A DNA stretch of 64,000 bases from Escherichia coli. GTDB lineage: Bacteria > Pseudomonadota > Gammaproteobacteria > Enterobacterales > Enterobacteriaceae. The notes under the pieces were generated by a model that saw only the letters and a program-made list of their open reading frames with translations, had not been told where the DNA came from and did not search any database. The position numbers and the translations under genes were made by a program. The stretch lies in NCBI RefSeq assembly GCF_036507355.1, contig NZ_AP027877.1. One strand, 5' to 3'. Shown here one piece after another: positions 2,570 to 14,993 of the stretch. Numbering within the stretch: the stretch's first letter is position 1; each line of letters starts with the position of its first letter.

Positions 2570-4196
2570 TAGGTTTCACTTTCGGAATATAGATTGAAAA
2601 TAAGGTACCGCAGGGATCATTATCTTCGAGAGTGATAACACCACCGCAGCGCGTTACGTAGCTGGCAATCAAGTACAACCCAATGCCATGTTCACCGGGC
2701 TCGTCAGCACGCGTACTGACCCCCTGCTCAAATATTTTGTCTCGTAGAGACTCTGGAACGCCGCAGCCCTGATCGGCGACTTCAATCACCACATCATCGC
2801 CTTCATCGCTGAGGAATAATTCAACGATCTTGTTTCCTTCATCGCTACGCAGGCTGGCTTCGAAGGCGTTATCAAGTAAATTTCCCACAATGGCGGCAAA
2901 CTCGGTGCTATCCAGTCCTGGCGGCAGTTGCGAAAGCTGGCTACCGGGGACGATGATCATTTTTAGCCCCAGTTCGCGGGCGCGCTGCACTTTACCAAAA
3001 AGCAGCCCCGCCACCTGGCGATCGGCAAACGCCTCGCGCAGGCTGTCAATAAGCTGTTGCTGGGCCTGAGACTCCCCCTGCACCATCGCCAGCACGCGAT
3101 CATACTCTTTCATCTGCAACAGACCATTGAGCGTCGACATCCAATTGAGATGCTCGTGTCGCAATGTACGAAGGCTCTCGACGTATTGTTTTATTTGCGT
3201 CAGTTGCGCATTGAGGGTGGAAATTTCGTCTTTACTACGAAAGCTGATAATGGCCCCCAGCAAATCATCACCTGAACGAATAGCTTCCCGATTGGCAATA
3301 ACGCTCAGACCGTTAAAGTTAGCCACCACATCCTGACGTTTTTCATCAATCTGTTCGGTAAAGAAATCGGCGGGCCTGACCACTTCAGCAATGGGTTTAC
3401 CCAACCATTGCCGTCCGGGGGAACTCAGCCCCAGCATCTTTCTTGCGTTACGATTGATGGCGGTAATGTAACCGTGCGGATCCACCGCAATCAGCCCTTC
3501 ATAAACCGAACTAAACAGCGCCTCTTGCTGACGGACCACGCGTGCGATTTGCTTTGGCTCCATGCCCATCATCTGCCGACGGATATGCGCGGCCAGGAAC
3601 CACGACAGCAACATCAGAATCCCTAACAGCACGACAAACACACCTGCCATCGGTAATAAAAACTCAGCCCGCCAGCTATCGATTTTACTCACCAGGTAGC
3701 CAATCGACACCACGCCGATGACTTTTCCATCGTCATCAAAGATTGGCGTTTTGGCGCGCATCGCCATACCCATTGACCCTTTCCCGGTAATGAAGTAGCT
3801 CTCCCCTTTCTCCAGCGCGCCCTGTTTGGTGAACTGCATAGGATAACCAATTTTCTCCGGATTAGGATGGTAAAGGCGGATCGAGTGCCGGTCGCCAATC
3901 ACCACATAATCAAAATCGGTATCTCTTTGTAATTTGTTAGCGATGGTCGCCAGCCGTTTGTAGTCACGCGTTTTCACCGTAGAGATGACACTGTCATTGG
4001 AGGCAATAATTTTCGCCTGATTCATTGCCATGTCGCGTACATGAAGCGTTAAATAGTCCTCAAAACTGGCCGTAAAATATTGCGCCAGGGCTGCAATGAC
4101 AAATATTGAGAACACCAGAATCAGCAAAAAGATACGCAGCGGAAATGCCAGTCTTTGGAAAAATGCAAACTGTTTATTCTCGTTAAGCTGCAACAT
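2538..4196 (-). CDS. dpiB: Sensor histidine kinase DpiB (CitA)
   Basis: ORF 2538..4256; start trimmed to the internal Met (MLQLNENKQFAFF...) matching the recalled DpiB N-terminus; histidine kinase motifs in the C-terminal half. Confidence 0.9.
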   Translation of the reverse strand: MLQLNENKQFAFFQRLAFPLRIFLLILVFSIFVIAALAQYFTASFEDYLTLHVRDMAMNQAKIIASNDSVISTVKTRDYKRLATIANKLQRDTDFDYVVIGDRHSIRLYHPNPEKIGYPMQFTKQGALEKGESYFITGKGSMGMAMRAKTPIFDDDGKVIGVVSIGYLVSKIDSWRAEFLLPMAGVFVVLLGILMLLSWFLAAHIRRQMMGMEPKQIARVVRQQEALFSSVYEGLIAVDPHGYITAINRNARKMLGLSSPGRQWLGKPIAEVVRPADFFTEQIDEKRQDVVANFNGLSVIANREAIRSGDDLLGAIISFRSKDEISTLNAQLTQIKQYVESLRTLRHEHLNWMSTLNGLLQMKEYDRVLAMVQGESQAQQQLIDSLREAFADRQVAGLLFGKVQRARELGLKMIIVPGSQLSQLPPGLDSTEFAAIVGNLLDNAFEASLRSDEGNKIVELFLSDEGDDVVIEVADQGCGVPESLRDKIFEQGVSTRADEPGEHGIGLYLIASYVTRCGGVITLEDNDPCGTLFSIYIPKVKPNDSSINPIDR

Positions 4197-4256
4197 TGTT
4201 TTCCTTGCGGGTTGTCCCGAGCCTCTTTGACGGATGTAATTAAAATGTTGAATCAA

Positions 4257-11428: not shown

Positions 11429-12235
11429 ATGAAAGCATTCTGGCGTAACGCCGCGTTGCTCGCGGTTTCTCTGCTTCCCTTCTCTTCTGCCAACGCCGTA
11501 GCGTTGCAGGCAAAACAGTATGGCGATTTTGATCGCTATGTCCTGGCCCTCTCCTGGCAAACCGGATTTTGCCAGAGTCAACACGATCGAAATCGTAACG
11601 AACGAGATGAATGTCGCCTGCAAACCGAAACGACCAACAAAGCTGATTTTCTGACCGTACATGGTCTGTGGCCAGGATTGCCTAAATCGGTCGCTGCCCG
11701 TGGTGTTGATGAACGCCGCTGGATGCGCTTCGGTTGCGCTACTCGCCCAATCCCGAATCTACCAGAAGCGCGCGCCAGCCGGATGTGTTCATCGCCGGAA
11801 ACCGGATTATCACTGGAAACGGCCGCTAAACTAAGTGAAGTCATGCCAGGAGCTGGCGGACGTTCCTGCCTGGAACGCTACGAATATGCCAAACACGGTG
11901 CCTGCTTTGGTTTTGATCCGGACGCATACTTCGGTACGATGGTACGCCTGAATCAAGAAATTAAAGAGAGCGAAGCCGGAAAATTCCTTGCGGATAATTA
12001 CGGTAAAACAGTGAGCCGCCGTGACTTTGACGCCGCCTTTGCCAAAAGCTGGGGAAAAGAGAACGTGAAAGCAGTTAAGCTAACGTGCCAGGGTAACCCT
12101 GCGTATTTGACTGAAATGCAGATCTCGATCAAAGCTGACGCCATCAACGCTCCGCTTTCTGCCAACTCATTCTTGCCACAACCACACCCAGGCAACTGTG
12201 GCAAAACCTTTGTGATTGATAAAGCGGGTTATTAA
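11429..12235 (+). CDS. rna: Ribonuclease I (periplasmic RNase T2 family)
   Basis: ORF 11411..12235 trimmed to MKAFWRNAALLAVSLLPFSSANA... (signal peptide). Confidence 0.92.
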   Translation: MKAFWRNAALLAVSLLPFSSANAVALQAKQYGDFDRYVLALSWQTGFCQSQHDRNRNERDECRLQTETTNKADFLTVHGLWPGLPKSVAARGVDERRWMRFGCATRPIPNLPEARASRMCSSPETGLSLETAAKLSEVMPGAGGRSCLERYEYAKHGACFGFDPDAYFGTMVRLNQEIKESEAGKFLADNYGKTVSRRDFDAAFAKSWGKENVKAVKLTCQGNPAYLTEMQISIKADAINAPLSANSFLPQPHPGNCGKTFVIDKAGY

Positions 12236-12382
12236 TCATCTGATTTACAAAACACGCTAATTTGTCTTCCATAAACCAAGGCGATTAAGATTTATACATA
12301 ATGCGCTGCATTGAGGAATTCCCTGAATGTGACGCAAATCACTTCAAAGAGTGAGCAACAGTCAGTATCATCATGTGAGTTA

Positions 12383-12418
12383 AACCCTCGCCGCCTGACG
12401 GTGAGGGTTTTCTTTTGG
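12383..12418 (+). terminator. Probable rna terminator hairpin
   Basis: AACCCTCGCCG...CGGTGAGGGTT imperfect inverted repeat followed by TTCTTTTGG. Confidence 0.5.
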
Positions 12419-12464
12419 GTATGTTTATCTGCGACACTCGCAGTACCGACGACATGGAGTAAAA

Positions 12465-12875
12465 ATGTCCAGACCAACTATCATCATTAACGACCTGGAT
12501 GCCGAACGCATCGATATTCTGCTGGAGCAACCCGCCTATGCTGGTTTGCCAATCGCCGACGCGTTAAACGCAGAGTTGGATCGCGCCCAAATGTGTTCGC
12601 CAGAAGAGATGCCACACGACGTGGTGACAATGAACAGCCGGGTTAAATTCCGCAATCTTAGCGATGGCGAAGTGCGTGTGCGCACGTTGGTGTATCCGGC
12701 AAAAATGACCGATAGCAATACTCAGCTTTCCGTTATGGCTCCGGTAGGTGCCGCACTGCTGGGGCTGCGCGTTGGCGATTCCATTCACTGGGAACTTCCG
12801 GGCGGCGTTGCAACCCACCTTGAAGTGCTGGAACTCGAATACCAGCCAGAAGCTGCTGGCGACTATCTGCTTTAA
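12465..12875 (+). CDS. rnk: Regulator of nucleoside diphosphate kinase Rnk (GreA/GreB-like)
   Basis: 136-aa [32 protein letters not shown]... Confidence 0.92.
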
Positions 12876-12909
12876 TCCCATCTGCACAAGCGATAACTCG
12901 CTTTGCCCA

Positions 12910-12932
12910 GAGGATGCACTCGCATCCTCTTT
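12910..12932 (+). terminator. Hairpin GAGGATGC-ACTC-GCATCCTC with TTT after rnk
   Basis: Perfect 8-bp stem and short T-run about 35 nt downstream of the rnk stop. Confidence 0.45.
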
Positions 12933-13012
12933 ACGCAAAATCAGCAATTTTTCCTGGTTCTCACTGTTCACTTTTGCTGCAAAATTATTCCGTTTCGTTT
13001 GTGGGAATAACC

Positions 13013-13102
13013 ATGGCAGAAGCATTTTACATCCTGATAGGATTTCTGATTATGGCGGCGATTATCGTCATGGCTGTCCTTTACCTCGAAAACCACTCCT
13101 GA
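13013..13102 (+). CDS. Candidate small hydrophobic protein (29 aa, MAEAFYILIGFLIMAAIIVMAVLYLENHS); speculative
   Basis: ATG with GGGAATAA 5-12 nt upstream; single predicted transmembrane-like helix; lies in the convergent rnk/ybdR gap. No homology evidence available. Confidence 0.25.
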   Translation: MAEAFYILIGFLIMAAIIVMAVLYLENHS

Positions 13103-13105
13103 CGA

Positions 13106-14344
13106 TCATATTGTTCCCCCCGGCATCGCATTCACCAGACCTGAAACCGCCTTCTGCGCCGCCTCTGCGCTTTGTGCACCGGGTACCAGAATCACCTTAC
13201 GGCACTCCTCTTCACGTTTTTCGAAAATCTCATATCCCCGGGCGGCCTCTTCAAACGGCATATAGTGGGTAACAATTTCTTCTGGTTTCAGTAATCCTTT
13301 CTCAATTAACGGTAATAATTCTCCCAGCCATGCGTGAACGTGGGTCTGTCCCATTTTAAACGTCAACCCTTTATCAAAGGCGTCGCCAAACAGGAAACCG
13401 TGAATAAATCCAGCGTAGACGCCCGGTACGCTAACAATGCCGCCACGCCTGACCGCCGCAATACACTGACGCAACGCTTTACCGCTGCTGCCCTCCAGTT
13501 TCAGGTTAGTCAGCACCGTTTCCGTGGTGCTGCCTTTCGCTTCAAAACCGACGGCGTCTATTACTGCATCCACGCCCCGGTGACCTGCCGTTTGTTCAAT
13601 AATTGACTGTGCCGGATCGCTATCTTCATCGAAATTAATCGGGATCGCGCCGTAGCGGTCAGCGGCGAAACGCAAGCGGTAGGGATGATGATCAACAACA
13701 AAAATCTGTTCCGCACCGAGCAACCGTGCACAGGCGATTGTCAACAATCCCACAGGACCAGCACCATAGACAGCAACGCTTGAACTTTGTTGGATCTGCG
13801 CATTTTTTGCTGCCTGCCATGCCGTTGGCAGAATATCAGAAAGGAAAAGGGCTTTATCATCTGAAAGCAAAGGCGGTACTTTAAACGGCCCCACATTCCC
13901 TTTAGGGACGCGGACATATTCCGCCTGCCCACCAGGAACGCCACCATACAGGTGACTATAACCAAACAATGCCGCGGGAGCTGGTATCTGTTTTTTATTG
14001 AGCGCAGCGCCTTTACCCGCATTGGTATTTTCGCAGGCGGCATATTACTGCATTCGACAGAAAAAACAGTCGCCACAAGCAATGACAAACGGAATTACCA
14101 CCCGGTCGCCTTTTTGCAAATTTTTTACGTCCTTTCCGGTTTCAACTACTTCCCCCATAAATTCATGACCAAAAATATCGCCATGTTTAACCTGGGGTAT
14201 TTTGCCTCGATAAAGATGGAGGTCAGAGCCACAGATCGCCGTTGCCGTAATACGCAGAATAATATCATCTGCCTGTTCAACGCCCGGATCGGGAACATTT
14301 TCTACCTGAACGTTATATGGGCCGTGATAAGTCAATGCTTTCAT
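13106..14344 (-). pseudogene. ybdR: Zn-dependent alcohol dehydrogenase family gene ybdR interrupted by an in-frame TAA at codon 100
   Basis: ORFs 14045..14344 (99 aa) and 13106..13969 (287 aa) are in the same frame; the 25 codons between them read [26 protein letters not shown], continuing the protein; total 412 codons with one internal stop (complement of 14045..14047). Confidence 0.85.
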
Positions 14345-14564
14345 GCAACCTCCAGAGACAGTTCAAAAAAGAGTCAGTCTTTAAGGGTAGCAATCACAGC
14401 GGGAAAACGGGCGGTACCACAGGTTTTGGGAGAATTCCTGGTGTTCAGTGAGAATATATTCATCACAGAAACAGTTCGTAAGGAAAAAGAACCAGACAAA
14501 TATCAGGGATAAATATTATAATCATGGCGAATGATTTGTTCATGATTAACAGGGAGAAAGGGTT

Positions 14565-14993
14565 ATGTATAAGACAATCATTATGCCAGTTGATGTATTT
14601 GAAATGGAATTGAGCGACAAAGCTGTTCGCCACGCTGAATTCCTCGCCCAGGATGACGGAGTTATTCATCTACTTCACGTACTACCCGGGTCAGCCAGCC
14701 TGAGCCTGCACCGTTTTGCCGCTGATGTGCGTCGTTTTGAAGAGCATCTGCAACATGAAGCAGAAGAACGTCTGCAAACGATGGTCAGCCACTTCACCAT
14801 CGATCCTTCCCGCATTAAACAACATGTCCGTTTTGGTAGCGTGCGGGATGAAGTCAATGAGTTGGCAGAAGAACTGGGGGCTGATGTTGTAGTTATTGGT
14901 TCTCGCAACCCATCGATTTCGACCCATCTGTTAGGTTCTAACGCCTCGAGCGTGATCCGCCACGCCAATCTGCCTGTACTGGTCGTTCGCTAA
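14565..14993 (+). CDS. uspG: Universal stress protein UspG
   Basis: 142-aa [29 protein letters not shown]... Confidence 0.93.

Follow-up and report, generated by a model that had tools for sequence, protein, structure and literature searches.

The gap between the convergent genes rnk and ybdR in Escherichia coli contains a short open reading frame for a hydrophobic peptide, and the locus raises the question of whether such a frame is a gene and, if it is, what the product does. In the 64,000-nucleotide stretch of DNA analyzed here (the window), we regard it as virtually certain that this 29-codon ORF is yldA, a genuine translated gene. It is also highly probable that three statements hold jointly: yldA is a translated gene, its product forms a single transmembrane helix in the inner membrane, and that product is a paralogue of YoaI. 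The first-pass annotation had proposed a real gene for a single-helix small membrane protein; the coding gene stands, and membrane insertion is a prediction. It had also implied that the gene was unannotated, and this part falls, as RefSeq already annotates yldA at exactly the same coordinates. The feature is already known: in 2018 yldA received its name and its product was detected experimentally, and NCBI PGAP now annotates the gene routinely.

The yldA coding sequence (13013..13102, + strand) runs from an ATG at 13013 to a TGA at 13100-13102, and the sequence as read and the ORF list both give 29 codons that specify MAEAFYILIGFLIMAAIIVMAVLYLENHS, in agreement with the start, length and product first proposed. 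Its placement was also correct: the frame lies in the convergent gap between rnk (12465-12875, +) and ybdR (13106-14344, -), downstream of the rnk hairpin, with its stop 3 nt from the stop of ybdR. The purine-rich ribosome-binding site that had been suggested corresponds to GGGAA at 13003-13007 (+), 5-6 nt before the ATG. This is a putative Shine-Dalgarno sequence, and a GG(A/G) run is present at the same spacing from the ATG in most of the genera in an alignment of the rnk-yldA spacer. The ORF list also contains a longer in-frame ORF (12914..13102, 62 aa) in which yldA is nested. We rejected this 62-codon frame as the true gene, since its upstream extension is not conserved and its start ATG is inside the rnk hairpin, and since the 29-codon ATG start is found in every yldA-positive locus. 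The over-long database entries P0020 and P0028 are start-site or frameshift artefacts.

Taken alone, the frame is unremarkable. There are 57 ORFs of at least 20 aa overlapping the 3.5 kb around yldA, such lengths are thus common, and a hydrophobic composition is weak evidence for coding, all of which would be compatible with a chance open frame in non-coding DNA. Because the ORF by itself is no more than chance would provide, the case for yldA rests on conservation and on the published detection of the protein. That detection, together with the codon-position pattern, the conservation of the frame and the matches to family models, indicates coding and excludes the chance reading, to which we attach a negligible probability.

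The protein evidence comes from VanOrsdel et al. (2018), who SPA-tagged 80 short ORFs on the MG1655 chromosome and analyzed LB cultures from exponential and stationary phase by immunoblot (PMC6001520). Table 1 of that paper, which lists the detected proteins, includes yldA between ybdR and rnk at 643330-643419, with the identical 29-aa sequence. Chromosomal tagging, which the first-pass annotation had put forward as a check, had therefore already given a band in MG1655 grown in LB. Window positions 12867-13300, which take in the gene and its upstream region, are base-for-base identical to MG1655, and because of this identity the SPA-tag evidence transfers directly to the window. The gene is identical in the two strains and occupies the same position between rnk and ybdR; only the neighbor ybdR differs. 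YldA is absent from the small proteins of a tetracycline ribosome-profiling screen cited in the same paper (PMC6001520), and the main text of a low-Mg2+ Ribo-RET study does not mention it.

Database records agree with the published identification. The MG1655 gene at 643330-643419, the exact equivalent coordinates, carries the RefSeq label 'small membrane protein YldA' (b4734, YP_009518757.1), and the PGAP protein is WP_000796528.1. The window protein scores 57.9 bits on the NCBIfam model NF041476 against a cut-off of 45, with residues 1-29 aligned to model positions 1-29, and 73.6 bits on the Pfam model PF23689 ('YldA-like') against a cut-off of 27. The UniProt entry is YLDA_ECOLI, and the protein occurs on at least 1000 contigs. 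The features by which the frame was picked out by eye were thus able to find a true small-protein gene.

With Rnk as a synteny anchor, 80 loci were collected from species-representative Enterobacteriaceae genomes, and an ATG frame of exactly 29 codons follows rnk on the same strand in 38 of them, mostly about 140 nt past the rnk stop. The positive genera are Escherichia, Citrobacter, Enterobacter, Lelliottia, Leclercia, Pseudenterobacter, Kosakonia and Phytobacter. The frame is open and exactly 29 codons long in all 35 sequences compared, despite DNA identities to the window of only 50-69%, and each of the other five frames is interrupted by stops in 13 to 35 of these 35 sequences. Third codon positions are the most variable (entropies of 0.66, 0.48 and 1.18 bits at positions 1, 2 and 3 across the 35 sequences). 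The pooled pN/pS is 0.39, with pS at 0.6-0.8, so that synonymous sites are near saturation. Six residues are invariant, M1, E3, A21, V22, L25 and E26, all of which are present in the window sequence, and the consensus is MxExLxITLxFLIxxAIIVxAVLYLERHW. This pattern is characteristic of purifying selection acting on a protein, and it bears out the conservation across Enterobacteriaceae that the first-pass annotation had proposed to examine. Conservation is concentrated in residues 15-26, with 0.58 bits compared with 1.62 bits for residues 4-14. The conserved residues show no one-face helix pattern (conservation moment 0.098, permutation p 0.59).

Within the species, the gene exists in two forms. 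Region 12860-13260 was compared by megablast with 5,426 complete E. coli genomes, with the ORF annotated yldA throughout, and one of two yldA alleles is present in 5418 of the 5426. The K-12-type haplotype, in which yldA is followed by ybdR, is found in 3600 genomes (~66%), and an alternative haplotype with a divergent yldA, MSEALGITAFYIFIAAIIVAAVLYLEQRW, and without ybdR is found in 1818 (~34%). The alternative allele, for example at positions 4159-4248 of locus L003, is identical at 16 of 29 residues (55%), and its DNA cannot be aligned to the K-12 type by megablast. The predicted cytoplasmic tail also differs between the alleles, being ENHS in the K-12 type and EQRW in the alternative. The retention of a divergent allele where ybdR is absent indicates that the conservation of yldA is not a side effect of ybdR. 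Across genera, the presence of yldA and that of ybdR are independent, with each of the four combinations represented between rnk and uspG. The second type of yldA is also found in E. albertii and other Escherichia species. A 67-aa database protein, P0001, is a chimera that joins the N-terminal half of the second allele, in frame, to the upstream region and gene of the K-12 type, and this suggests that the K-12-type segment arrived by recombination.

The YldA family is small, patchy and confined to Enterobacteriaceae. A search with the family profile through 1.84 billion cluster representatives returned 44 matches at E <=0.001, many of them 29 aa long and the others over-long start calls, read-through products or fragments. 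Beside rnk, no yldA is present in 42 of the 80 species loci. Among 46 loci without a protein-level match, a remnant was found only in E. cloacae DSM 26481 (L035, 3473-3511), where the interval from the rnk hairpin to ybdR contains a 5'-truncated, decayed yldA (...VAAVLSLKRHR*), which indicates that yldA was lost by deletion there rather than being absent from the start. The gene is dispensable, yet constrained wherever it is retained. In E. coli HS-02 (L086, 1948-2225), the alternative yldA is unannotated and broken by several 1-nt insertions and also by deletions, which reflect either true decay into a pseudogene or indel errors made during assembly.

The repeated loss of yldA among Enterobacteriaceae bears on a reading in which the frame is translated and the peptide is functionless, with translation or the RNA mattering only in cis, for example by stabilizing the rnk or ybdR transcript or by affecting its termination. 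Expression that appears to be low and the tight squeeze of yldA between two transcription units are consistent with such a role. However, an effect confined to the RNA does not account for the constraint on the amino-acid sequence itself, seen in the six invariant residues, the low pN/pS and the 29 codons kept in 35 of 35 sequences; it also sits poorly with homology to YoaI, a functional protein, and with the retention of yldA with or without ybdR. We consider a purely cis-acting role quite improbable.

The gene rnk (12465..12875, +), which encodes a nucleoside diphosphate kinase regulator, precedes yldA in all 38 positive loci and is followed by a terminator-like hairpin (12909..12930, +) with a 9-bp stem AGAGGATGC/GCATCCTCT, a 4-nt ACTC loop and the short T tract TTTAC. 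The best fold of 12895-12945, which comprises the stem and a short outer helix (12902-12939), has a dG of -18.7 kcal/mol and a z of -4.4 relative to shuffled sequences. A consensus scan did not call the hairpin at 12909-12930 an intrinsic terminator, its T run being too short. Of 84 loci, 56 have the identical stem sequence, and because these include loci that lack yldA, the hairpin belongs to rnk. The short T tract makes read-through from rnk into yldA plausible, and the hairpin is probably leaky. Across many genera the stem is identical while the loop and flanks vary, with zero covariation, so that the stem is conserved beyond structural need. It occurs once in the 64-kb window and contains an SD-like AGAGGA and the ATG at 12914, which opens the 62-codon in-frame ORF behind the over-long database calls. 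Citrobacter amalonaticus has two copies of the rnk hairpin (L019, 3445-3464 and 3608-3627), 163 nt apart, with yldA shifted downstream by a similar distance, an arrangement that looks like a local duplication of the spacer. Further upstream, the known cis-regulatory leader rnk_leader (RF01771) is found at 12311-12419 (+), upstream of rnk, with 124.9 bits and an E value of 1.9e-24; an Rfam scan of 12000-14600 found no other family, and none over yldA.

Apart from the invariant hairpin stem, the rnk-yldA spacer is poorly conserved in a 15-genus alignment save for three features: a TCAnC immediately after the hairpin, an xAxxxT hexamer, and the GG(A/G) run that precedes the ATG. In the window the hexamer is CAAAAT at 12980..12985 (+), 27 nt before the ATG, and would be a candidate -10 element of a yldA promoter. 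In 15 loci aligned across several genera, its A (12981) and T (12985), alignment columns A112 and T116, never vary. A consensus promoter scan did not flag the candidate at 12980-12985. We consider the chances evenly balanced that yldA would be transcribed from its own weak promoter, located between the hairpin of rnk and the start codon, perhaps supplemented by read-through from rnk. Scan hits inside the ORF, one promoter-like (13026-13053) and one a hairpin (13050-13073), were set aside because their counts are at the level of shuffled sequences and they are attributable to chance. A PhoB box was sought because yoaI is activated by PhoB; inspection by eye of the region upstream of yldA revealed no PhoB or PhoP box that was convincing or conserved across genera. 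Expression data from anaerobic conditions place yldA in a set of 100 genes whose transcripts increase with the dose of NaF, a group that also holds osmotic and envelope stress genes, phoPQ and rstAB (PMC10100675).

On the other side of yldA lies ybdR (13106..14344, -), a zinc-dependent alcohol dehydrogenase gene that carries a premature stop, Q100*, in the window. The stop is a TAA at 14045-14047 (-) where MG1655 has CAA, and it leaves ORFs of 99 and 287 aa. No identical ybdR is present in the 5,426 complete E. coli genomes, the best match being 99.8% and all copies being annotated as intact, and Q100* looks private to this strain. Since the stops of yldA and ybdR are 3 nt apart (13100-13108), their transcripts must overlap, and a published RNA-seq analysis lists the ybdR-yldA pair as a convergent excludon, seen in at least 50% of its samples (PMC12288877). 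As a speculation, Rho-dependent polarity past Q100* could lower antisense transcription across yldA. The yoaI pair is in the same published list of convergent excludons (PMC12288877), and the stops of yeaK and yoaI are 0 nt apart both in MG1655 (L004, 8078-8183) and in Cedecea (L085, 4138/4139). The convergent layout shared by the two paralogues may be coincidence or may point to common regulation.

A short hydrophobic peptide whose stop is 3 nt from that of a convergent gene, and whose entire gene is covered by antisense RNA, invites comparison with type I toxins, and overexpression of the homologue YoaI delays growth. YldA might then be a toxin-like or membrane-perturbing peptide repressed by the overlapping antisense ybdR transcript. 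Yet yldA is conserved in many genomes that have no ybdR or convergent partner, the antisense RNA comes from the ybdR mRNA only, with no dedicated antisense sRNA or Rfam family at the locus, and the tagged protein accumulates in normally growing cells. Moreover, yldA is a single-copy gene without repeats, and type I toxins are not known to be conserved as single-copy syntenic orthologues in the way that yldA is. A toxin-like function thus seems to us quite unlikely, and both this reading and the cis-acting one are minor alternatives.

The best indication of what YldA does is its relationship to YoaI, of which it is very probably a paralogue on the basis of sequence comparison. In an NCBIfam scan, YoaI was the second match, and other hydrophobic families trailed it by three to six orders of magnitude. 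On the YoaI model NF041475 the window protein scores 22.5 bits (E 8.7e-5), below the equivalog cut-off of 45, and YldA is by this measure a YoaI homologue and not a YoaI equivalog. The YoaI model is matched by all 34 of the YldA sequences scanned at E <=0.01 (best 1.2e-8), and no other family is matched consistently. In the reverse direction, a YldA HMM gives E. coli YoaI 18.9 bits, compared with a maximum of 14.3 for 20,000 shuffles and 0.7 for the reversed sequence; 19 other small membrane proteins, whose sequences are approximate, score 4.6 bits or less. For YoaI of Cedecea davisae, which is encoded in a yeaL/yeaK/yeaH/yeaG neighborhood, the YoaI model gives 68.9 bits and the YldA model 38.4 bits; as judged from these scores, this protein bridges the two families. 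Profile-profile alignment of YldA with YoaI by hhalign gives a probability of 97.8% and an E value of 1.2e-12 over 28 ungapped columns with an offset of +5.

Precomputed Pfam labels in a large protein collection place all YoaI proteins in PF23689.3, 'YldA-like', and the grouping of the two families is therefore already implicit in Pfam. The older PF23689.1 misses E. coli YoaI at E <=1, and the family was evidently widened between versions to include YoaI. No paper treating YldA together with YoaI was found in the literature searched.

The two proteins share a single hydrophobic helix flanked by glutamates (E3 and E26 in YldA, E8 and E31 in YoaI), a conserved (A/S)-V-L-x-(L/I)-E-(R) motif at the cytoplasmic end, which is a predicted end in the case of YldA, and genes that abut a convergent gene with 0-3 nt between the stops. 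At the +5 offset, S26, V27 and E31 of YoaI correspond to A21, V22 and E26 of YldA, all of which are invariant in YldA, and Ser26, Val27 and Glu31 are likewise invariant in YoaI (PMC11429745). The proteins differ in length, with YoaI having 34 aa and YldA lacking its five N-terminal residues, MNDQM; in the replacement of the invariant Ser26 of YoaI by the invariant Ala21 of YldA; and in the tail, which is ERTG in YoaI and ENHS or ERHW in YldA. The K-12-type ENHS tail is without the Arg that YoaI and most YldA orthologues carry. The genes also lie at different loci, yoaI (b1788) between yeaK and yeaL and yldA at rnk-uspG.

YoaI is a small inner-membrane protein, activated by PhoB, whose target is the sensor kinase EnvZ, which it binds and stimulates (PMC11429745). 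It is localized to the membrane, and cells in which GFP is fused to its C terminus fluoresce at their periphery; a two-hybrid assay shows binding to EnvZ, and reporters that depend on EnvZ-OmpR are activated by YoaI (PMC11429745). The E31A and E31Q variants lose both EnvZ binding and activation of omrB, and YoaI additionally causes a growth lag that is independent of EnvZ and of Glu31 (PMC11429745).

Residues 4-25 of YldA form a predicted transmembrane helix, with a mean Kyte-Doolittle value of 2.71 over 22 residues, flanked by the invariant Glu3 and Glu26. From this hydrophobicity and from homology to YoaI, with the peripheral fluorescence of its C-terminal GFP fusion, YldA is predicted to be a single-pass inner-membrane protein (residues 4-25) with a periplasmic N terminus and the tail ENHS in the cytoplasm, a topology that we consider likely. 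The literature searched contains no experiments on the function, localization, topology or partners of YldA. Like most characterized bacterial small membrane proteins, YldA would on balance be expected to bind a larger inner-membrane protein. The contact would be made through the half of the helix in the cytoplasmic leaflet (A16, V19, A21, V22, L23 and L25) together with the interfacial Glu26.

The partner would possibly be a sensor histidine kinase, EnvZ as for YoaI or a related one, a proposal made by analogy that is our best guess and that we regard as falling well below even chances. It derives from homology to YoaI, and Glu26 would act in the manner of Glu31 in YoaI, a residue required both to bind EnvZ and to activate the EnvZ-OmpR-dependent omrB. 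The type of mechanism is one for which there are precedents in the small-protein kinase modulators MgrB with PhoQ, SafA with PhoQ and MzrA with EnvZ (PMC11429745), which are likewise short single-pass inner-membrane proteins that contact a histidine kinase. Unlike YoaI, these proteins have no sequence similarity to YldA (a version of the MgrB sequence scores 0.1 bits on the YldA HMM), and MgrB acts through a periplasmic domain that YldA does not have.

Against the kinase model, YldA falls below the YoaI cut-off, so by this sequence measure it is not YoaI, and paralogues can have different partners. The main rival is a partner other than a kinase, with YldA tuning a transporter, a respiratory complex or another inner-membrane machine. 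Of the small membrane proteins characterized in E. coli, most have transporters or complexes and not kinases as their targets, as exemplified by AcrZ with AcrB, MgtS with MgtA/PitA, KdpF with KdpABC and CydX with cytochrome bd. The departure of YldA from YoaI at Ser26 and in the tail, along with its sub-threshold score, allows for a change of partner, and the growth lag caused by YoaI itself needs neither EnvZ nor Glu31. On the other hand, the only characterized homologue acts on EnvZ, and does so through the sole polar residue that is invariant in both families; in addition, no transporter gene is consistently linked to yldA, whose neighbors rnk, ybdR and uspG encode soluble proteins. We regard a partner of this other kind as a serious possibility that still falls short of being probable.

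Under the kinase proposal, E. coli would have two paralogous YoaI-type regulators, with YldA docking on its kinase through Glu26. Because the two E. coli alleles differ in their tails (66% versus 34% of genomes) and the gene is patchily present between species, such wiring would be specific to strains or species. This combined picture is conjectural and we hold it to be rather unlikely as a whole, yet the homology to YoaI, including the EnvZ-binding glutamate, makes it a specific hypothesis that is cheap to test, and it is in the function of YldA that the remaining value of the locus lies. If YldA overlaps YoaI functionally, this could explain the modest (1.4- to 2-fold) effect of yoaI deletion on omrB. 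If the proposal is true, YldA would add an unrecognized input to two-component signaling.
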